From: a virus | Taxonomy: Duplodnaviria; Heunggongvirae; Uroviricota; Caudoviricetes | IMG/VR virus record: IMGVR_UViG_2700989362_000003 | Reading direction: 5' to 3' (one strand) | DNA length: 37,091 nt | Shown here: positions 9,106 to 37,091 of the stretch, piece after piece | Layout: every line of letters starts with the position of its first letter | How positions within the stretch are numbered: the stretch's first letter is position 1 | The notes under the pieces: generated by a model | What the model saw: the letters and a program-made list of their open reading frames with translations, nothing else | Databases searched by the model: none | Told to the model about the DNA's origin: nothing | Position numbers and translations under genes: made by a program

Positions 9106-9684
9106 ATGGCCATAAAAGGTCTTGAGCAGGCCGTTGAAAACCTCAGCCGTATCAGCAAAACGGCGGTGCCCGGTGCCGCCGCAATGGCCATTAACCGCGT
9201 TGCTTCATCCGCGATATCGCAGTCTGCGTCACAGGTTGCCCGTGAGACAAAGGTACGCCGGAAACTGGTAAAGGAAAGGGCCAGGCTGAAAAGGGCCACG
9301 GTCAAAAATCCGCAGGCCAGAATCAAAGTTAACCGGGGGGATTTGCCCGTAATCAAGCTGGGTAATGCGCGGGTTGTCCTGTCCCGCCGCAGGCGTCATA
9401 AAAAGGGGCAGCGTTCATCCCTGAAAGGTGGCGGCAGCGTGCTTGTGGTGGGTAACCGTCGTATTCCCGGCGCGTTTATTCAGCAACTGAAAAACGGCCG
9501 GTGGCATGTTATGCAGCGTGTGGCCGGGAAAAACCGTTACCCCATTGATGTGGTGAAAATCCCGATGGCGGTGCCGCTGACCACGGCGTTTAAACAGAAT
9601 ATTGAACGGATACGGCGTGAACGTCTTCCGAAAGAGCTGGGCTATGCGCTGCAGCATCAACTGAGAATGGTAATAAAGCGATGA
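9106..9684 (+). CDS. Z: tail completion protein gpZ
   Basis: 192-aa ORF in lambda Z position and length. Confidence 0.9.
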   Translation: MAIKGLEQAVENLSRISKTAVPGAAAMAINRVASSAISQSASQVARETKVRRKLVKERARLKRATVKNPQARIKVNRGDLPVIKLGNARVVLSRRRRHKKGQRSSLKGGGSVLVVGNRRIPGAFIQQLKNGRWHVMQRVAGKNRYPIDVVKIPMAVPLTTAFKQNIERIRRERLPKELGYALQHQLRMVIKR

Positions 9685-10076
9685 AACATACTGAACTCCG
9701 TGCAGCCGTACTGGATGCACTGGAGAAGCATGACACCGGGGCGACGCTTTTTGATGGTCGCCCCGCTGTTTTTGATGAGGAAGATTTTCCGGCAATTGCC
9801 GTTTATCTCACCGGCGCTGAATACACGGGCGAAGAGCTGGACAGCGATACCTGGCAGGCGGAGCTGCATATTGAAGTTTTCCTGCCTGCTCAGGTGCCGG
9901 ATTCAGAGCTGGATTCGTGGATGGAGTCCCGGATTTATCCTGTGATGAGCGATATCCCGGCACTGTCAGATTTGATCACCAGTATGGTGGCCAGCGGCTA
10001 TGACTACCGGCGCGACGATGATGCGGGCCTGTGGAGTTCAGCCGATCTGACTTATGTCATTATCTATGAAATGTGA
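9681..10076 (+). CDS. U: tail terminator protein gpU
   Basis: 131-aa [36 protein letters not shown]... overlapping the Z stop. Confidence 0.9.
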
Positions 10077-10083
10077 GGACGCT

Positions 10084-10824
10084 ATGCCTGTACCAAATCC
10101 TACAATGCCGGTGAAAGGTGCCGGGACCACCCTGTGGGTTTATAAGGGGAGCGGTGACCCTTATGCGAACCCGCTTTCAGACGTTGACTGGTCGCGTCTG
10201 GCAAAAGTTAAAGACCTGACGCCCGGCGAACTGACCGCTGAGTCCTATGACGACAGCTATCTCGATGATGAAGATGCAGACTGGACTGCGACCGGGCAGG
10301 GGCAGAAATCTGCCGGAGATACCAGCTTCACGCTGGCGTGGATGCCCGGAGAGCAGGGGCAGCAGGCGCTGCTGGCGTGGTTTAATGAAGGTGATACCCG
10401 TGCCTATAAAATCCGCTTCCCGAACGGCACGGTCGATGTGTTCCGTGGCTGGGTCAGCAGTATCGGTAAGGCGGTGACGGCGAAGGAGGTGATTACCCGC
10501 ACGGTGAAGGTCACCAATGTGGGACGTCCGTCGATGGCAGAAGATCGCAGCACGGTGACGGCGACGACCGGCATGACGGTGACACCCGCCAGTGCTTCCG
10601 TAGTGAAAGGGCAGAGCACCACGCTGACCGTGGCATTCCAGCCGGATGGCGCAACCGACAAGAGCTTCCGTGCGGTGTCTGCGGATAAAACAAAAGCCAC
10701 CGTGTCGGTCAGTGGTATGACCATCACCGTGAAAGGTGTTGCTGCAGGCAAGGTCAACATTCCGGTCGTATCTGGTAATGGTGAGTTTGCTGCGGTTGCA
10801 GAAATCAACGTCACCGCCAGTTAA
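10084..10824 (+). CDS. V: major tail tube protein gpV with C-terminal Ig-like domain
   Basis: [36 protein letters not shown]..., 246 aa. The C-terminal third ([26 protein letters not shown]...) has Big_2-like character. The track ORF starts 10 codons upstream. Confidence 0.95.
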
Positions 10825-25048: not shown

Positions 25049-26102
25049 CCTATAACCGCAGTAATGTGGTGATGCCGGATGATGGCGCGCCGTTCCGCTA
25101 CAGTTTCAGCGCCCTGAAAGACCGCCATAATGCCGTTGAGGTGAACTGGATTGACCCGGATAACGGCTGGGAGACGGCGACAGAGCTTGTGGAGGATACG
25201 CAGGCCATTGTCCGTTACGGTCGTAACGTCACGAAGATGGATGCCTTTGGCTGTACCAGCCGGGGGCAGGCACACCGCGCCGGGCTGTGGCTGATTAAAA
25301 CGGAACTGCTGGAGACGCAGACCGTGGATTTCAGCGTGGGTGCTGAAGGGCTTCGTCATGTACCGGGCGATGTCATTGAAATCTGCGATGATGACTATGC
25401 CGGTATCCGCACCGGCGGGCGCGTGCTGGCGGTGAACAGCCAGACCCGGACGCTGACGCTCGACCGTGAAATCACGCTGCCATCCTCCGGCACCACGCTG
25501 ATAAGCCTGGTTGACGGGCAGGGGAATCCGGTCAGCGTGGAGGTCCAGTCCGTCACCGACGGCGTGAAGGTAAAAGTGAGCCGTGTTCCTGACGGTGTTG
25601 CTGAATACAGCGTGTGGGGGCTGAAGCTGCCGACGCTGCACCAGCGATTGTTCCGCTGCGTGAGTATCCGTGAGAACGACGACGGCACGTATGCCATCAC
25701 CGCCGTGCAGCATGTGCCGGAAAAAGAAGCCATCGTGGATAACGGGGCGCACTTTGACGGCGACCAGAGCGGCACGGTGAATGGTGTCACGCCGCCAGCG
25801 GTGCAGCACCTGACTGCCGAAGTCACCGCAGACAGCGGGGAATATCAGGTGCTGGCGCGCTGGGACACGCCGAAGGTGGTGAAGGGCGTGAGCTTCCTGC
25901 TCCGTCTGACCGTAACAGCGGATGACGGCAGTGAGCGGCTGGTCAGCACGGCCCGGACGACGGAAACCACTTACCGCTTCACACAACTGGCGCTGGGGAA
26001 CTACAGGCTGACAGTCCGGGCAGTAAATGCGTGGGGGCAGCAGGGCGATCCGGCGTCGGTATCGTTCCGGATTGCGGCACCGGCAGCGCCTGTCACTATT
26101 GA
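25049..26102 (+). CDS. J: gpJ internal fragment (about codons 370-720)
   Basis: J frame from [31 protein letters not shown]... to ...APAAPVTI, followed by the 21-N gap. Confidence 0.85.
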
Positions 26103-26123
26103 NNNNNNNNNNNNNNNNNNNNN
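26103..26123. other. assembly gap (21 N)
   Basis: Run of 21 n characters. Confidence 0.95.
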
Positions 26124-26158
26124 TATTCCCCGCTGTCTGCGGTGACTTCGGCAGTCAG
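26124..26158. repeat. 35-nt foldback: inverted copy of the adjacent J sequence, probably a chimeric-read or assembly artefact
   Basis: TATTCCCCGCTGTCTGCGGTGACTTCGGCAGTCAG is the exact reverse complement of the J segment CTGACTGCCGAAGTCACCGCAGACAGCGGGGAATA (seen at 25811..25845 and elsewhere), and is followed directly by the normal downstream J sequence. Confidence 0.7.
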
Positions 26159-27748
26159 GTGCTGGCGCGCTGGGACACGCCGAAGGTGGTGAAGGGCGTG
26201 AGCTTCCTGCTCCGTCTGACCGTAACAGCGGATGACGGCAGTGAGCGGCTGGGCAGCACGGCCCGGACGACGGAAACCACTTACCGCTTCACACAACTGG
26301 CGCTGGGGAACTACAGGCTGACAGTCCGGGCAGTAAATGCGTGGGGGCAGCAGGGCGATCCGGCGTCGGTATCGTTCCGGATTGCCGCACCGGCAGCGCT
26401 GTCGCGGATTGAGCTGACGCCGGGCTATTTTCAGATAACCGCCACGCCGCATCTTGCGGTTTATGATCCGACGGTACAGTTTGAGTTCTGGTTCTCGGAA
26501 AAGCGGATTGCGGATATCAGGCAGGTTGAAACCACAGCACGCTATCTTGGCACGGCGCTGTACTGGATAGCCGCCAGTATCAATATCAGGCCGGGCCATG
26601 ATTATTATTTTTACGTTCGCAGTGTGAACACCGTTGGCAAATCGGCATTTGTGGAGGCCATCGGTCGGGCGAGCGATGATGCAGAAGGTTATCTGAATTT
26701 TTATAAAGGGTTGATCAATAAAACGCATCTCGGCAAGGAGTTGTGGACGCAGATTGATAACGGTCAGCTTGCGCCTGACCTGGCTGAAATCAGGACGTCC
26801 ATTACGGATGTCAGCAATGAAATCACGCAGACCGTCAATAAGAAACTGGAAGACCAGAGTGCGGCAATTCAGCAGATACAGAAGGTTCAGGTTGATACAA
26901 ATAATAACCTGAACAGCATGTGGGCTGTGAAGCTGCAGCAGATGCAGGACGGACGCCTTTATATCGCGGGTATTGGTGCCGGTATTGAGAACACCCCTGA
27001 CGGCATGCAGAGTCAGGTGCTGCTGGCGGCGGACAGGATTGCGATGGTTAATCCTGCGAATGGCAACACAAAACCGATGTTTGTTGGTCAGGGCGATCAG
27101 ATATTCATGAACGACGTGTTCCTGAAACGCCTGACGGCCCCCACCATTACCAGCGGTGGAAATCCATCGGCATTTTCCCTGACTCCGGACGGAAAGCTGA
27201 CCGCTAAAAATGCGGATATCAGTGGCAGTGTGAATGCGAACGCCGGGACGCTCAACAATGTCACGGTAAATGAAAACTGTACGATTAAGGGCATGCTGGA
27301 GGCGACTCAGGTCAGAGGTGACTTCGTTAAAGCTGTATCCAAATCATTTCCGAAACAGGCTGGTACGTGGGGTAACACGGAAACACCAAACGGGACGGTT
27401 ACAGTCACCATAAGCGATGATCATAACTTTGACCGCCAGATTATTATTCCGCCCATTATTTTTAACGGTATAGCGTATGACGATCCGGGGAGCGGAAATA
27501 ACCCAGGAGGCACGCGATACACGGGTTATGGTTTTGAAGTTCGCAAAAACGGCGTATTAATCGCATCCAGAGAAACTAAAGGTGCCATTCCCGGTAGTTA
27601 CAGTGCAGTTATTGATATGCCTAGTGGTGGTGGTAGCGTCACTCTGGAGTTTAAGATTTTCCAGAAAGGCAATCAGGGGGCAGGCAATATCACCGACTGT
27701 ACGGTGATTGTGACCAAAAAAGCGGCTTCCGGCATCAGTATTCGTTGA
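26159..27748 (+). CDS. J: gpJ 3' fragment including the C-terminal receptor-binding domain, allele 1 (ends ...[12 protein letters not shown])
   Basis: J frame from [20 protein letters not shown]... to the stop at 27748. The last roughly 200 aa ([57 protein letters not shown]...) differ from both the other allele in this window and lambda J as I recall it. Confidence 0.85.
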
Positions 27749-27818: not shown

Positions 27819-28113
27819 ATGCGTAAAGTTTGTGCAGCCATTTTGTCCGCAGCCATTTGCCTGGCCGTATCCGGTGCGCCTGCATGGGCGTCTGAACATC
27901 AGTCCACGCTGAGCGCGGGGTATCTTCATGCCCGGACCAACGTTCCCGGCAGTGATGATCTGAACGGGATTAACGTGAAATACCGTTATGAGTTTACGGA
28001 TACGCTGGGGCTGGTGACGTCATTCAGCTATGCAGGAGACAAGAATCGCCAGCTGACCCGTTACAGCGATACCCGCTGGCATGAAGATTCCGTGCGTAAC
28101 CGCTGGTTCAGCG
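27819..28113 (+). CDS. lom: lom 5' fragment (98 codons), loop variant 1, truncated at N junction
   Basis: MRKVCAAILSAAICLAVSGAPAWA signal peptide, then SEHQSTLSAGYLHARTNVPGSDDLNGINVKYRYEF... This differs from the other lom copies (YLQTHTDMPGSDDLKGI) in the first predicted loop. Confidence 0.8.
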
Positions 28114-28114
28114 N
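28114..28114. other. N junction 6 (lom interior joined to J interior)
   Basis: Single n followed by J-internal sequence ([21 protein letters not shown]...). Confidence 0.9.
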
Positions 28115-29653
28115 AAGGGCGTGAGCTTCCTGCTCCGTCTGACCGTAACAGCGGATGACGGCAGTGAGCGGCTGGGCAGCACGGCCCGGACGACGGAAAC
28201 CACTTACCGCTTCACACAACTGGCGCTGGGGAACTACAGGCTGACAGTCCGGGCAGTAAATGCGTGGGGGCAGCAGGGCGATCCGGCGTCGGTATCGTTC
28301 CGGATTGCCGCACCGGCAGCGCTGTCGCGGATTGAGCTGACGCCGGGCTATTTTCAGATAACCGCCACGCCGCATCTTGCGGTTTATGATCCGACGGTAC
28401 AGTTTGAGTTCTGGTTCTCGGAAAAGCGGATTGCGGATATCAGGCAGGTTGAAACCACAGCACGCTATCTTGGCACGGCGCTGTACTGGATAGCCGCCAG
28501 TATCAATATCAAACCGGGCCATGATTATTACTTTTATATCCGCAGTGTGAACACCGTTGGCAAATCGGCATTCGTGGAGGCTGTTGGTCAGCCGAGTGAT
28601 GATGCATCCGGTTATCTGGATTTTTTCAAAGGCGAGATAGGGAAAACCCATCTGGCTCAGGAGCTGTGGACGCAGATTGATAACGGTCAGCTTGCGCCGG
28701 ACCTGACTGAAATCAGGACGTCCATTACGAATGTCAGCAATGAAATCACGCAAACCGTCAATAAAAAACTGGAAAATCAGAGTGCTGCAATCCAGCAGAT
28801 ACAGAAAGTTCAGGTTGATACAAATAATAACCTGAACAGCATGTGGGCTGTGAAGCTGCAACAGATGAAGGACGGACGCCTTTATATTGCGGGTATCGGT
28901 GCCGGTATTGAGAATACGCCAGCAGGAATGCAGAGTCAGGTGCTGCTGGCGGCAGACAGGATTGCGATGATTAATCCTGCGAATGGCAACACAAAGCCGA
29001 TGTTTGTTGGTCAGGGCGATCAGATATTCATGAACGACGTGTTCCTGAAATGCCTGACGGCTCCGACCATTACCAGCGGCGGTAATCCTCCGGCATTTTC
29101 CCTGACACCTGGCGGACGGCTGACGGCGAAAAATGCCGATATCAGCGGTAACGTGAACGCGAACTCCGGGACGCTCAACAACGTCACGATTAATAAGAAC
29201 TGTCGGGTTCTGGGAAAATTGTCCGCGAACCAGATTGAAGGCGATCTCGTTAAAACAGTGGGCAAACCTTTCCCACGGGACTCCCGGGCACCGGAGAGGT
29301 GGCCATCAGGGACCATTACCGTCAGGGTTTATGACGATCAGCCGTTTGATCGGCAAATTGTTATTCCCGCGGTGGCGTTTCGCGGTGCTAAACATGAGCG
29401 GAAGAATAACAATATTTATTCGTCATGCCGCCTGATAGTGAAGAAAAACGGTGCTGAAATTTATAACCGAACGACCCTGGATAATACGCTGATATATACG
29501 GGTGTTATTGATATGCCTGCCGGTCACGGTCACATGACGCTGGAGTTTTCTGTATCGGCATGGCTGGTAAATGGCTGGTATCCCACAGCAAGTATCAGCG
29601 ATTTGCTGGTTGTGGTGATGAAGAAAGCCACTGCAGGCATCACGATTAGCTGA
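28115..29653 (+). CDS. J: gpJ 3' fragment including the C-terminal receptor-binding domain, allele 2 (ends ...[11 protein letters not shown])
   Basis: J frame to the stop at 29653. C-terminal region [95 protein letters not shown]... is distinct from allele 1. Central segment variant [20 protein letters not shown]. Confidence 0.85.
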
Positions 29654-29672
29654 ATTTTATAACCCAGATACG

Positions 29673-29696
29673 GGCACCAGAAATGGTGCCTTTTTT
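29673..29696 (+). terminator. intrinsic terminator after J (allele 2 context)
   Basis: GGCACC AGAAAT GGTGCC stem-loop followed by TTTTTT. An identical element is at 30964..30987. Confidence 0.6.
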
Positions 29697-29720
29697 ATTG
29701 CAGAAAAGCGAGAGGTAATT

Positions 29721-30203
29721 ATGCGTAAAGTTTGTGCAGCCATTTTGTCCGCAGCCATCTGTCTGGCCGTATCCGGTGCGCCTGCATGGGCGTCTGAACA
29801 TCAGTCCACGCTGAGCGCCGGGTATCTTCAGACCCATACTGATATGCCAGGCAGCGATGACCTGAAGGGCATTAACGTGAAATACCGTTATGAGTTTACG
29901 GATACGCTGGGGCTGGTGACGTCATTCAGCTATGCAGGAGACAAGAATCGCCAGCTGACCCGTTACAGCGATACCCGCTGGCATGAAGATTCCGTGCGTA
30001 ACCGCTGGTTCAGCGTGATGGCGGGGCCGTCTGTGCGCGTGAATGAATGGTTCAGCGCGTATGCGATGGCGGGTGTGGCTTACAGCCGTGTGTCGACTTT
30101 TTCCGGGGATTATATCCGCGTAACTGACAATAAGGGGAAAACGCACGATGTGCTGACCGGAAGTGATGACGGTCGCCACAGCAACACGTCTCTGGCGCAC
30201 TGA
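29721..30203 (+). pseudogene. lom: lom carrying an 83-bp internal deletion, frameshifted with premature stop (160 aa instead of 199)
   Basis: Co-linear with the full lom at 31012..31611 until ...SNTSLA. The 83 bp TGGGGGGCTGGCGTG...GTGGTGACTGGCG present in the full copy are missing, and a 5-bp direct repeat TGGCG flanks the deleted segment there. The frame then reads H and stops, losing the C-terminal strands and the terminal ...GYKF. Confidence 0.75.
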
Positions 30204-30264
30204 CGGTTTCATCGTGGGTGTCGGTTATAAATTCTGATTAGCCAGGTAACACAGTGTTATGACA

Positions 30265-30290
30265 GCCCGCCGGTTCAGGCGGGCTTTTTT
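30265..30290 (+). terminator. intrinsic terminator after lom
   Basis: GCCCGCC GGTTCA GGCGGGC stem-loop followed by TTTTTT. Identical elements are at 31639..31664 and 32579..32604. Confidence 0.6.
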
Positions 30291-30301
30291 GTGGGGTGAA
30301 T

Positions 30302-30858
30302 ATGGCAGTAAAGATTTCAGGTGTACTGAAAGACGGCACAGGAAAACCGGTACAGAACTGCACAATCCAGCTGAAAGCAAAACGTAACAGCACCACGGTG
30401 GTGGTGAACACGCTGGCCTCAGAAAATCCGGATGAAGCCGGGCGTTACAGCATGGACGTTGAGTACGGTCAGTACAGCGTTATTCTGTTGGTGGAAGGAT
30501 TCCCGCCGTCACATGCCGGGACCATCACCGTGTATGAAGATTCCCGACCCGGTACGCTGAATGATTTTCTCGGTGCCATGACGGAGGATGATGCCCGTCC
30601 GGAGGCACTGCGCCGTTTTGAGCTGATGGTGGAAGAGGTGGCGCGTAACGCGTCCGCGGTGGCACAGAACACGGCAGCCGCGAAGAAATCAGCCAGCGAT
30701 GCCAGCACATCAGCCCGTGAGGCGGCAACCCATGCGACTGATGCTGCAGATTCAGCACGTGCAGCCAGCACGTCAGCCGGACAGGCCGCTTCGTCGGCTC
30801 AGTCAGCGTCTTCCAGCGCAGGAACGGCATCAACAAAGGCCACTGAAGCCTCAAAAAG
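30302..30858 (+). CDS. stf: side tail fiber stf 5' fragment truncated at N junction
   Basis: [57 protein letters not shown]..., identical to the N-terminus of the full stf at 32616. The track starts the ORF at an upstream GTG (30296). Confidence 0.85.
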
Positions 30859-30859
30859 N
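30859..30859. other. N junction 7 (stf interior joined to J 3' end)
   Basis: Single n followed by the last 28 codons of J allele 2 ([27 protein letters not shown]). Confidence 0.9.
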
Positions 30860-30944
30860 AAATGGCTGGTATCCCACAGCAAGTATCAGCGATTTGCTGG
30901 TTGTGGTGATGAAGAAAGCCACTGCAGGCATCACGATTAGCTGA
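30860..30944 (+). CDS. J: gpJ 3'-terminal fragment (allele 2 type)
   Basis: Identical to 29569..29653. Confidence 0.8.
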
Positions 30945-31011
30945 ATTTTATAACCCAGATACGGGCACCAGAAATGGTGCCTTTTTTATTGCAGAAAAGC
31001 GAGAGGTAATT

Positions 31012-31611
31012 ATGCGTAAAGTTTGTGCAGCCATTTTGTCCGCAGCCATCTGTCTGGCCGTATCCGGTGCGCCTGCATGGGCGTCTGAACATCAGTCCAC
31101 GCTGAGCGCCGGGTATCTTCAGACCCATACTGATATGCCAGGCAGCGATGACCTGAAGGGCATTAACGTGAAATACCGTTATGAGTTTACGGACACGCTG
31201 GGGCTGATTACGTCATTCAGTTATGCCAACGCTGAAGATGAGCAAAAAACGCATTACAGCGATACCCGCTGGCATGAGGATTCCGTGCGTAACCGCTGGT
31301 TCAGCGTGATGGCGGGGCCGTCTGTGCGCGTGAATGAATGGTTCAGCGCGTATGCGATGGCGGGCGTGGCTTACAGCCGTGTGTCGACCTTCTCCGGGGA
31401 TTATCTCCGCGTAACTGACAACAAGGGGAAAACGCACGATGTGCTGACCGGAAGTGATGGCGGTCGCCACAGCAACACGTCTCTGGCGTGGGGGGCTGGC
31501 GTGCAGTTTAACCCGACCGAATCCGTGGCCATTGACCTTGCTTATGAAGGTTCCGGCAGTGGTGACTGGCGCACTGACGGTTTCATCGTGGGTGTCGGTT
31601 ATAAATTCTGA
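31012..31611 (+). CDS. lom: outer membrane protein Lom (Ail/Lom family), full length 199 aa, loop variant 3
   Basis: Signal peptide plus beta-barrel OMP signature ending ...DWRTDGFIVGVGYKF. Has a loop-2 variant SFSYANAEDEQKTHYSD versus SFSYAGDKNRQLTRYSD in the other copies. Confidence 0.9.
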   Translation: MRKVCAAILSAAICLAVSGAPAWASEHQSTLSAGYLQTHTDMPGSDDLKGINVKYRYEFTDTLGLITSFSYANAEDEQKTHYSDTRWHEDSVRNRWFSVMAGPSVRVNEWFSAYAMAGVAYSRVSTFSGDYLRVTDNKGKTHDVLTGSDGGRHSNTSLAWGAGVQFNPTESVAIDLAYEGSGSGDWRTDGFIVGVGYKF

Positions 31612-31675
31612 TTAGCCAGGTAACACAGTGTTATGACAGCCCGCCGGTTCAGGCGGGCTTTTTTGTGGGGTGAAT

Positions 31676-32002
31676 ATGGCAGTAAAGATTTCAGGTGTAC
31701 TGAAAGATGGGGCGGGGAAACCTGTCGTAAATTGTGCGATTGAACTGCGGGCCAGAAGAACCAGTCCGACCGTTGTGGCACACGTTGTTGCCACTTGCGT
31801 GACGGACAATAACGGTGCTTATGTGATTGAGGCTGAGCCGGGGTATTACGAGGTTGCGCTTCACTGTAACGGCTGGCAGCCAACCCGTGTCGGGGATATT
31901 GATGTGGCACCGACTGATGCACCGGGGACACTGAACGCGTTTCTGAATGCACCAAAGGATGGTGATTTACGTCCGGAGGTGATGAAGTGTCAGCGCCAGT
32001 GA
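31676..32002 (+). pseudogene. stf: second stf allele (divergent N-terminal domain), truncated after about 108 codons, apparently by an IS insertion
   Basis: [102 protein letters not shown], then MKCQRQ-stop. It is followed by non-stf sequence that encodes a transposase N-terminus. Confidence 0.7.
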
Positions 32003-32088
32003 TATAAGACGGTAATTCGCCATTTGGATTGTCCGCTCCACCCAACATGTTGTTTCCTTAAGGTTCTCACACCAGAAAGGACATCAAC

Positions 32089-32231
32089 ATGCTGAGCAGA
32101 GAGGACTTTTACATGATAAAGCAAATGCGCCAGCAGGGCGCGTACATCGTCGATATTGCGACTCAGATTGGTTGCTCTGAACGGACGGTCAGACGCTACC
32201 TCAAATACCCTGAACCGCCAGCCAGAAAGAC
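32089..32231 (+). mobile_element. IS21-family-like transposase (IstA-type) 5' fragment, truncated at N junction. The IS left boundary is uncertain, possibly near 31988 (TGTCAG...)
   Basis: MLSREDFYMIKQMRQQGAYIVDIATQIGCSERTVRRYLKYPEPPARK has an N-terminal helix-turn-helix with the pattern seen in IS21-family IstA proteins (compare IS100 ...[39 protein letters not shown] from memory). Confidence 0.5.
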
Positions 32232-32232
32232 N
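32232..32232. other. N junction 8 (IS fragment joined to lom interior)
   Basis: Single n followed by lom-internal sequence (TSFSYAGDKNRQLTRYSD...). Confidence 0.9.
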
Positions 32233-32517
32233 ACGTCATTCAGCTATGCAGGAGACAAGAATCGCCAGCTGACCCGTTACAGCGATACCCGCTGGCATGA
32301 AGATTCCGTGCGTAACCGCTGGTTCAGCGTGATGGCGGGGCCGTCTGTGCGCGTGAATGAATGGTTCAGCGCGTATGCGATGGCGGGTGTGGCTTACAGC
32401 CGTGTGTCGACCTTCTCCGGGGATTATCTCCGCGTAACTGACAACAAGGGGAAAACGCACGATGTGCTGACCGGAAGTGATGACGGTCGCCACAGCAACA
32501 CGTCTCTGGCGCACTGA
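32233..32517 (+). pseudogene. lom: lom 3' fragment carrying the same 83-bp deletion as 29721..30203
   Basis: Reads ...SNTSLAH-stop, as in the copy at 29721..30203. The original lom stop and terminator follow downstream. Confidence 0.75.
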
Positions 32518-32615
32518 CGGTTTCATCGTGGGTGTCGGTTATAAATTCTGATTAGCCAGGTAACACAGTGTTATGACAGCCCGCCGGTTCAGGCGGGCTT
32601 TTTTGTGGGGTGAAT

Positions 32616-35600
32616 ATGGCAGTAAAGATTTCAGGTGTACTGAAAGACGGCACAGGAAAACCGGTACAGAACTGCACAATCCAGCTGAAAGCAAAACGTA
32701 ACAGCACCACGGTGGTGGTGAACACGCTGGCCTCAGAAAATCCGGATGAAGCCGGGCGTTACAGCATGGACGTTGAGTACGGTCAGTACAGCGTTATTCT
32801 GTTGGTGGAAGGATTCCCGCCGTCACATGCCGGGACCATCACCGTGTATGAAGATTCCCGACCCGGTACGCTGAATGATTTTCTCGGTGCCATGACGGAG
32901 GATGATGCCCGTCCGGAGGCACTGCGCCGTTTTGAGCTGATGGTGGAAGAGGTGGCGCGTAACGCGTCCGCGGTGGCACAGAACACGGCAGCCGCGAAGA
33001 AATCAGCCAGCGATGCCAGCACATCAGCCCGTGAGGCGGCAACCCATGCGACTGATGCTGCAGATTCAGCACGTGCAGCCAGCACGTCAGCCGGACAGGC
33101 CGCTTCGTCGGCTCAGTCAGCGTCTTCCAGCGCAGGAACGGCATCAACAAAGGCCACTGAAGCCTCAAAAAGTGCTGCCGCTGCAGAGTCCTCAAAAAGC
33201 GCGGCGGCTACCAGTGCCGGTGCGGCGAAAACGTTAGAAACGAATGCGGCAGCGTCACAACAATCAGCAGCCACTTCTGCATCCACCGCGACCACGAAAG
33301 CGTCAGAAGCTGCCACCTCAGCCCGGGATGCGTCGGCTTCAAAAGAGGCGGCAAAATCATCAGAAACGAACGCATCATCAAGCGCCAGTAGCGCAGCTTC
33401 CTCGGCGACGGCGGCTGCAAATTCTGCGAAGGCGGCCAAAACGTCCGAGACGAACGCCAGGTCTTCTGAAACGGCAGCGGGACAGAGTGCCTCAGCTGCG
33501 GCAGGCTCAAAAACAGCGGCTGCGTCGTCTGCCAGCGCCGCGTCAACAAGTGCCGGGCAGGCCTCAGCCAGTGCCACCGCCGCCGGAAAATCGGCAGAAA
33601 GCGCCGCATCATCCGCTTCAACAGCCACAACGAAGGCTGGCGAAGCCACTGAGCAGGCCACGGCAGCAGCGAGGTCAGCTTCCGCAGCGAAGACATCCGA
33701 AACGAACGCGAAAGCGTCGGAAACCCGTGCAGAATCCTCAAAAACGGCTGCCGCATCGTCCGCCAGTTCGGCGGCGTCATCGGCATCATCGGCGTCTGCT
33801 TCAAAAGATGAGGCGACCAGACAGGCGTCAGCAGCGAAGGGCAGCGCCACGACGGCATCCACGAAGGCGACAGAGGCTGCTGGTAGTGCGACGGCAGCAG
33901 CTCAGAGCAAAAGTACGGCGGAATCTGCAGCAACGCGCGCTGAGACAGCGGCAAAACGGGCAGAGGATATTGCATCCGCCGTGGCGCTTGAGGATGCGAG
34001 CACGACGAAAAAGGGGATAGTACAGCTCAGTAGTGCGACTAACAGCACTTCCGAGTCACTGGCGGCAACACCAAAAGCCGTTAAGGCCGCGTATGACCTG
34101 GCTAACGGGAAATACACCGCACAGGATGCAACGACAGCACAGAAAGGGATAATCCAGCTAAGCAGCGCGACCAACAGCACGTCTGAAACGCTGGCGGCAA
34201 CGCCAAAGGCAGTAAAAGCAGCCAATGACAATGCTGAGAAACGTCTGCAGAAAGATCAGAACGGTGCGGATATCCCTGGCAAAGACACCTTTACGAAAAA
34301 TATTGGTGCCTGCCGTGCCTTCGGTGGGTCAGTAAGCACAACAACAGGAAACTGGACGACTGCACAGTTTATCGAGTGGCTGGATTCTCAGGGAGCATTT
34401 AACCATCCATACTGGATGTGCAAGGGTTCCTGGTCTTATGGCAATAATAAAATCATTACTGATACTGGCTGCGGTAATATTCATCTCGCCGGAGCTGTCA
34501 TTGAAGTAATGGGGATAAAGTCAGCGATGACGATCCGCATTACCACTCCGACCACATCCAGCGGTGGCGGAACAACCAACGCCCAGTTTACCTATATTAA
34601 TCACGGAACAGATTATTCACCTGGCTGGCGAAGGGACTATAACTCCAGAAATAAGCCAACGGCATCAGAGATCGGGGCGCTACCGTCAGGTGGAACAGCA
34701 GTATCATCAGTTAATCTGGCTTCAAAAGGTCGGGTAGCCGCGCTGACAGACAATACGCAGGGGGCAGCAGGTCTTGAGTTATACGAGGTGTATAACAACG
34801 GATATCCAACAGCGTATGGAAATATCATTCACCTGAAAGGGATGACAGCCGTTGGCGAAGGTGAGTTACTCATCGGCTGGGGGGGGACAAGCGGGGCTCA
34901 TGCTCCGGCATTTATTCGTTCACGACGGGATACGACCGACGCAAACTGGTCGCCGTGGGCGCAGCTTTACACCTCGGCTCATCCTCCTGCAGAGTTTTAT
35001 CCAGTCGGTGCACCAATCCCGTGGCCATCAGATACCGTTCCGTCTGGTTATGCCCTGATGCAGGGGCAGACTTTTGACAAATCTGCTTACCCGAAACTTG
35101 CAGCCGCTTATCCGTCAGGCGTGATCCCTGATATGCGTGGCTGGACGATTAAGGGCAAGCCCGCCAGTGGTCGTGCCGTATTGTCTCAGGAACAGGATGG
35201 CATTAAATCGCACACCCACAGCGCCAGCGCATCCAGTACGGATTTGGGGACGAAAACCACATCGTCGTTTGATTACGGCACTAAATCCACGAATAACACC
35301 GGGGCGCATACGCACAGTCTGAGCGGCTCTACAAGTTCAGCTGGGGCCCACCAACATAGTCAGACTGGGCCCAGAACGAATAGCGGGAGTCAACCTACTG
35401 GAATGTTTCCGGCAGGGAGTACTCAAGTTAGCGGGACTAATCAGGTTGGTATCAGTGGCTCATTAACCAGTGGCACCTCCCAATGGGTAGGTAAATCATC
35501 TTCAGAAGGAAACCATACACACTCACTGTCCGGCACAGCAGCATCTGCGGGTGCACACGCGCATACTGTCGGTATTGGTGCTCATACGCACTCTGTTGCG

Positions 35601-35699
35601 ATTGGTTCACATGGACACACCATCACCGTTAACGCTGCTGGTAACGCGGAAAACACCGTCAAAAACATCGCATTTAACTATATTGTGAGGCTCGCATAA
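32616..35699 (+). CDS. stf: side tail fiber protein Stf, about 1027 aa
   Basis: Lambda-type Stf N-terminus, then a long Ala/Ser/Thr-rich low-complexity shaft, two copies of the tail-fiber repeat KGI(V/I)[11 protein letters not shown](S/T)[11 protein letters not shown], a roughly 300-aa Cys-containing central domain ([10 protein letters not shown]...WMCKGSW...[10 protein letters not shown]...), and a C-terminal tip with multiple HxH motifs ending ...[11 protein letters not shown]. The track ORF starts at an upstream GTG (32610). Confidence 0.9.
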
Positions 35700-37029: not shown

Positions 37030-37091
37030 GGTGATGCTGCCAACTTACTGATTTAGTGTATGATGGTGTTTTTGAGGTGCTCCAGTGGCTT
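37030..37091 (+). mobile_element. IS1 left end (terminal inverted repeat plus first 62 bp), running off the window
   Basis: GGTGATGCTGCCAACTTACTGATTTAGTGTATGATGGTGTTTTTGAGGTGCTCCAGTGGCTT matches the IS1 left end, including the start of insA (GTGGCTT...), as I recall it. Confidence 0.8.

Follow-up and report, generated by a model that had tools for sequence, protein, structure and literature searches.

Our analysis indicates that the insertion sequence IS21 has very probably interrupted a side tail fibre gene, here termed stf', in a decayed lambda-like prophage of Shigella sonnei, and that the apparent end of the transposase gene istA and the neighbourhood in which the interrupted gene now lies are artefacts of scaffolding. 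The window, by which we mean the whole stretch of DNA analysed, is the entire public record CXFK01000048.1 (37091 bp) from the S. sonnei draft assembly GCA_001254835.1; sister assemblies with CX.. accessions represent the S. sonnei isolates of Holt et al. 2012 (PMC5447701). The stf'/IS21 feature sits in a 1372-bp assembly piece, 30860-32231, which is a faithful fragment of a degraded lambda-like S. sonnei prophage with the order J - lom - stf'. Aligned end to end with the chromosome of S. sonnei FORC_011 (CP010829; PMC5447701), this piece is 99.6% identical to positions 9186-10556 of the corresponding locus (L004). Its features are as follows.

30860-30944, plus strand: final codons and stop of the tail-tip gene J (3' end), from the alignment to FORC_011, where J ends at L004 9270.
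31012-31611, plus strand: intact lom, 199 aa, an Ail/Lom outer-membrane beta-barrel (PF06316, E=4e-129, profile positions 1-199 of 199).
31638-31667, plus strand: terminator-like hairpin and T-run between lom and stf', from a consensus scan.
31676-31987, plus strand: native 5' part of stf', 104 codons (PF08400), 104/104 aa identical to an intact 471-aa protein; DNA homology ends at 31987.
31988-32002, plus strand: IS-encoded tail of the open reading frame, TGT CAG CGC CAG TGA, that is CQRQ and a stop, from direct reading and the junction alignment.
31988-32231, plus strand: left 244 bp of IS21, with inverted repeat TGTCAGCGCCA at 31988 and an istA start at 32089 (47 codons), 244/244 identical to a complete copy (L003).
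32232, no strand: single N at which the IS21 interior is joined to the interior of lom; the next piece restarts at about codon 70, in another lom copy.

The stub of stf' is an open reading frame of 108 aa (31676-32002, plus strand) that begins where an earlier, sequence-only reading of this DNA had placed an stf start. It matches the Pfam family PF08400, 'Prophage tail fibre N-terminal', with E=9.8e-37 and 126.4 bits (gathering cut-off, 26.6 bits) over profile positions 1-104 of 134, and it is located downstream of J and lom, as in Escherichia coli CFSAN029787 (L001) and in FORC_011. With the N-terminus of the 1027-aa main Stf of the window (32616-35699), it shares 52 of 104 residues (50% identity, E=4e-34), as the sequence-only reading had estimated in describing the domain as about half identical. 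The stub also matches CarboxypepD_reg, PF13620.

The nature of the breakpoint is clear from comparison with an uninterrupted allele. In a megablast search of 5426 complete E. coli genomes, the stf' part was 99% identical to its targets, only as far as base 31987, and none of the 5426 carried stf' and IS21 contiguously. The top match, CFSAN029787, carries the gene uninterrupted (471 aa), with the arrangement J - lom - stf' - DUF4376 gene; its protein is 100% identical to the window frame over the first 104 residues, goes on with RPEVMKRFEEMVAQ, and covers PF08400 in full (profile positions 1-131 of 134). At the breakpoint, the CFSAN029787 DNA reads ...cgtccggaggtgatgaag followed by cgctttgaggaa, which encodes RPEVMK and then RFEEMVAQ (protein RPEVMKRFEEMV). 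Because the intact allele reads in this way, the residues MK are native and the IS supplies CQRQ and the stop only. The earlier description of a frame that reaches RPEV, reads MKCQRQ and stops is thus accurate as a reading of the frame, but its division between gene and insertion has to be moved by two residues. By these alignments, the breakpoint falls exactly at 31987/31988, with the native frame extending to codon 104 (...RPEVMK). There is no N at the stf'/IS21 junction, which reads CGTCCGGAGGTGATGAAG directly followed by TGTCAGCGCC.

The existence of this allele also bears on whether the 108-aa frame could be a natural short gene of another family that merely resembles the N-terminus of Stf. 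Its identity to the main Stf is only 50%, and the PF13620 match would be in keeping with such an origin. We assign this explanation next to no probability, given the strength of the PF08400 match (about 1e-36), the perfect identity of 104 aa to a 471-aa PF08400 protein encoded at the same J-lom-stf position with a DUF4376 gene next to it, and the location of the final four codons and stop inside IS21. The same allele disposes of the concern, raised with the original description, that the domain might belong to a different intact gene family.

The stub is without the last ~30 positions of the PF08400 profile and the whole distal part, and the gene is therefore inactivated; no full-length distal (receptor-binding) region is found in a frame that stops at 108 aa as against 471 aa in the intact allele. 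Judged by its sequence, stf' is a pseudogene fragment of the PF08400 family rather than a functional member, and the stub is presumably without function. That it has been retained for a role, for example as a free tail-attachment domain hindering tail-fibre assembly by superinfecting or co-resident lambdoid phages, seems to us highly improbable. The recent common ancestry of S. sonnei would explain conservation of the stub equally well. As a separate observation, the stub still has its ribosome-binding region and an intact lom upstream, and it seems to be widespread in S. sonnei.

In the public gene calls of the contig, the 108-aa stub is not listed, and a 149-aa antisense frame (31599-32048, minus strand) is. 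We regard the latter as spurious, as it lies opposite the well-supported PF08400 frame and crosses the stf'/IS21 junction. Because the public calls carry this antisense frame instead, CXFK01000048.1 is itself missing from the exact-protein matches of the stub.

With respect to the inserted element, the sequence from 31988 reads TGTCAGCGCC... and is the left end of IS21 itself. IS21 is the prototype of the IS21 family, carries istA and istB, and was first described on plasmid R68.45. In 2415 of the 5426 E. coli genomes, the interval 31980-32231 matched sequence to which RefSeq gives the name 'IS21-like element IS21 family transposase' (istA), so that the absence of any IS match, which would have counted against an insertion, was not borne out. 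The complete copy to which 31988-32231 is identical at 244/244 positions (L003, annotated in RefSeq as IS21 with istA and istB) is 2130 bp long, has an istA of 1173 bp together with istB, and ends in TGTCAGCGCCA and TGTCAACGCCA, an inverted repeat that matches at 10/11 positions. This places the terminal T of IS21 at base 31988. Homology to the stf' target ends at 31987 and the terminal TG of the element follows directly. The claim that a side tail fibre gene had been cut by an IS21-like element can accordingly be sharpened to IS21, at its terminal TG. The IstA start proposed at 32089 is likewise correct: the ATG is in place, and the first 47 aa match helix-turn-helix (HTH) families in Pfam. 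The proposed end of the feature at 32231 is another matter. The frame is as described, but base 32232 is an N marking a contig end within a multi-copy IS, and the apparent end of istA at 32231 is for this reason neither a biological boundary nor the trace of a deletion.

The top IS21 matches share the bases GTGAAG just outside the element. An IS21 target preference or a longer IS end was considered and set aside; we attribute the shared flank to ranking by coverage of a query with 8 flanking bases, among 2891 records, and in the window these bases are native stf' sequence.

A further IS left end, that of IS1 (GGTGATGCTGCCAACTTACTGATTTAGTG...), was noted earlier near 37030 and is real. Its first base is 37031, and only 61 bp of it (37031-37091) precede the end of the record; here too the assembly breaks at a multi-copy IS. 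IS1A also occupies this position in E. coli genomes that share the stf-tfa region.

In terms of distribution, the junction recurs well beyond the window. An identical 108-aa protein is encoded by the finished chromosome CP010829, where it is annotated as 'hypothetical protein FORC11_1838', and in seven draft assemblies, and an identical 36-nt junction was found in 8/8 of these records, namely the FORC_011 chromosome and 7 independent S. sonnei drafts. All seven drafts break 31-53 bp into IS21. In the 90% protein cluster, S. sonnei partials of 102, 99 and 104 aa, encoded on >1000, 101 and 45 contigs, respectively, terminate at or slightly before the junction (the 104-aa partial carries the label MULTISPECIES [Shigella]), and those of S. 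boydii, S. flexneri and E. coli continue past this point with RFEEMV.... From this distribution of partial proteins, the insertion is widespread in S. sonnei and apparently specific to it. A search of one genome for each GTDB species gave 0 hits for the exact left junction, which is what one would expect if, as we assume, an E. coli genome stands in for Shigella there. IS21 is among the 12 IS types of S. sonnei 53G in the searched text of PMC7373316.

These records are also what decides whether the junction could be an assembly chimera like the other joins of the scaffold, with the gene uninterrupted in the bacterium itself. In favour of a chimera, the mis-scaffolding of the window's chain of contigs is demonstrable, and four bases at 31605-31659 match another prophage copy and not FORC_011. 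We nonetheless hold it to be extremely unlikely: the junction is without an N and falls exactly on the terminal TG of IS21, the same junction is found in a finished chromosome and seven other assemblies, and >1000 S. sonnei contigs have a protein ending there.

The finished FORC_011 chromosome places the interrupted gene in a degraded lambdoid remnant (Q-like gene, IS, tail genes M, L, K, I and J), followed by lom, stf'::IS21, a DUF4376 gene and sitDCBA. The sequence-only reading had assigned the interrupted allele and the main stf to separate prophages, and this remnant adjoining sitDCBA is indeed a separate one. Past L004 10556, FORC_011 continues with further IS21 sequence, not lom, within a nested IS structure that spans L004 10313-13854. 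Specifically, IS21 is broken by a complete 1.26-kb IS3-family element (L004 10741-12002), which, from its ends and size, we take to be IS600. At about its position 1100, IS21 is then fused to the interior of a second IS600-like copy, inverted and truncated (L004 12678-13854), after which stf' resumes at the equivalent of L001 4821. FORC_011 has therefore lost ~433 bp of stf', together with the right half of IS21 and, with it, istB. The nested structure points to an IS-mediated deletion later than the original insertion. With IS1, IS21 and IS600 all present, S. sonnei is the IS-rich host that had been surmised. Each part of the sequence-only interpretation is supported.

As an observation on the setting of the module, the intact stf'-DUF4376 prophage end adjoins potB in CFSAN029787 (L001 4076-6068) and sitD in S. 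sonnei (L004 13855-15099), and the same tail-fibre module therefore occurs in different chromosomal contexts.

The loss of the right half of IS21 together with ~433 bp of stf' means that the target-site duplication is not recoverable in the FORC_011 lineage. Target-site duplications of IS21 are short direct repeats of 4-5 bp. Pattern scans for the ancestral right junction (IS21 right end, 0-8 nt, CGCTTTGAGG...) returned 0 hits each in genome_contigs and metagenome_contigs. The other half of stf', sought as CGCTTTGAGGAAATGGTGGCGCAGGCG, had no match within the window at up to 3 mismatches. It had been proposed that this half and a target-site duplication be sought elsewhere in the genome; in FORC_011 the outcome was negative, the IS600 events having removed the IS21 right end and ~433 bp of stf. 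As neither a target-site duplication nor an IS21 right end beside stf' was found in the window, FORC_011 or the pattern scans, we infer simple transposition from one junction, the left, which would have been made by transposition and not by recombination.

Taken together, these observations suggest the following course of events. The stf' gene originally encoded ~471 aa, with a PF08400 N-terminal domain, a distal part unrelated to the main Stf, and a DUF4376 gene downstream. IS21 would then have transposed into codon 105, so placing its left terminal repeat against base 31987 and extending the native frame by four IS codons (CQRQ) before a stop. This insertion is old and shared within S. sonnei, and in FORC_011 it was followed by entry of IS600 into IS21 and a truncation that removed the right half of the element and ~433 bp of stf'.

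The surroundings of the piece in the window require a different explanation. N occurs at nine places, which divide the record into ten pieces:

15983, 18128, 21132, 23092, 25048, 28114, 30859 and 32232: single N.
26103-26123: run of 21 N.

When the window is compared with itself, each piece proves to share homologous coordinates with its neighbours (92-99% identity). Two examples are the pairs 29919-30858 and 32233-33172, with 99.6% identity, and 29569-30197 and 30860-31488, with 95.4%. From 14555 onward, every piece falls on the K/I/J/lom interval of one S. sonnei prophage remnant. Since piece after piece covers again the homologous coordinates of its neighbour, the pieces are read as serial allelic contigs: on these alignments, divergent K/I/J/lom/stf contigs of several lambdoid prophages appear to have been strung together by the scaffolder, with no true tandem array. 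Gene order in the window past ~15983 is unreliable, and the adjacency of the stf'::IS21 piece to the main stf is a short-read scaffold artefact. An exact look-up of the main stf returned CXFK01000048.1 as its sole record, with no placement in a finished genome.

Taken at face value, the order of the deposited record would describe a real tandem of lom-stf (N-terminus), lom-stf'::IS21 and lom (fragment)-stf, produced by local duplication, with IS21 having joined stf' to the next lom, and IS elements are able to mediate such rearrangements. We consider this very unlikely. An N stands at every join, the re-coverage of neighbouring coordinates at 92-99% is the signature of serial allelic contigs, FORC_011 has more IS21 and not lom after L004 10556, and the main stf piece matches the FORC_011 locus in a 235-bp lom segment only.

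Open reading frames that cross an N are artificial fusions (32089-32517, 30296-30940, 27819-28124 and 26027-27748), in which an istA N-terminus is joined to a lom C-terminus, an stf N-terminus to a J C-terminus, or a lom N-terminus to a J fragment. Two of them, 32089-32517 (142 aa, the istA-lom fusion) and 30296-30940 (212 aa), are listed as genes in the public gene calls of the contig.

Upstream of stf', the same 199-aa lom gene is called in loci L004-L008. The hairpin that follows it (31638-31659) has an 8-bp stem with 7 G-C pairs and is followed by TTTTTTG, and an identical hairpin and T-run precedes the main stf at ~32578. The lom upstream of the main stf (29721-30203 and 32233-32517) is without 83 bp of the intact gene (31489-31571), a deletion that is flanked by CTGGCG direct repeats and causes a frameshift, such that the protein ends at 160 aa (...HSNTSLAH*). 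By this deletion, the lom of the 'main' prophage is broken, whereas the prophage with the broken stf retains an intact lom.

Over the 1372 bp of the piece, the window and FORC_011 differ at five positions only (31605, 31638, 31645, 31659 and 31717), which concentrate in the intergenic terminator region between lom and stf'; four of the five differing bases agree with the other prophage copy (32545-32600). The differences at 31605-31717 could reflect a cross-copy consensus in the short-read assembly or gene conversion. This clustering is a hint that the piece may contain short-read consensus contributed by other prophage copies; the junction itself is identical.

In comparison with known systems, stf' shares with the lambdoid side tail fibre genes (lambda stf, E. 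coli K-12 stfR) the same PF08400 N-terminal domain and the same place after J and lom, and its intact allele is likewise accompanied by a small downstream accessory gene; the window copy differs in retaining 104 codons only. The intact 471-aa allele and the 1027-aa main Stf are 50% identical over the first 123 aa only and are otherwise unrelated. The main Stf has Phage_fiber_2 and Collar domains and a Caudo_TAP tail fibre assembly gene downstream, whereas the intact stf' allele has neither domain and is partnered by a DUF4376 gene, not Caudo_TAP. From their domain content, stf' and the main stf are alleles of one attachment module that differ in their distal parts, the usual pattern among lambdoid side tail fibres. 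Relative to IS21, the window element has the terminal TG, the HTH of the istA N-terminus and 244/244 identity to the RefSeq copy, but only the left 244 bp, and the FORC_011 copy is interrupted by IS600 and is without the right half and istB.

A close parallel is the formation of pseudogenes and decay of prophages by IS elements in Shigella. The text searched of Hawkey et al. 2020 (PMC7373316) concerns the same host, S. sonnei, and the same elements IS21, IS600 and IS1, and the sequence of gene interruption, nested insertions and IS-adjacent deletion seen here does not differ in kind from what it describes. That searched text contains neither 'prophage' nor 'tail' and does not name the stf' site.

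The stf'::IS21 allele, already present in public genomes, is an ordinary IS-made pseudogene and a product of ordinary IS-driven prophage decay. In practical terms, its value is as a warning that gene order, 'tandem' lom and stf copies, and frames crossing an N are not real in CXFK01000048.1. The junction could also serve as a simple marker of S. sonnei, since neither the 5426 complete E. coli genomes nor the partials from S. boydii and S. flexneri considered here contain it. Biologically, the allele adds little beyond a further example of an IS-made pseudogene, here in the decaying prophage of a host-restricted pathogen rich in IS elements.
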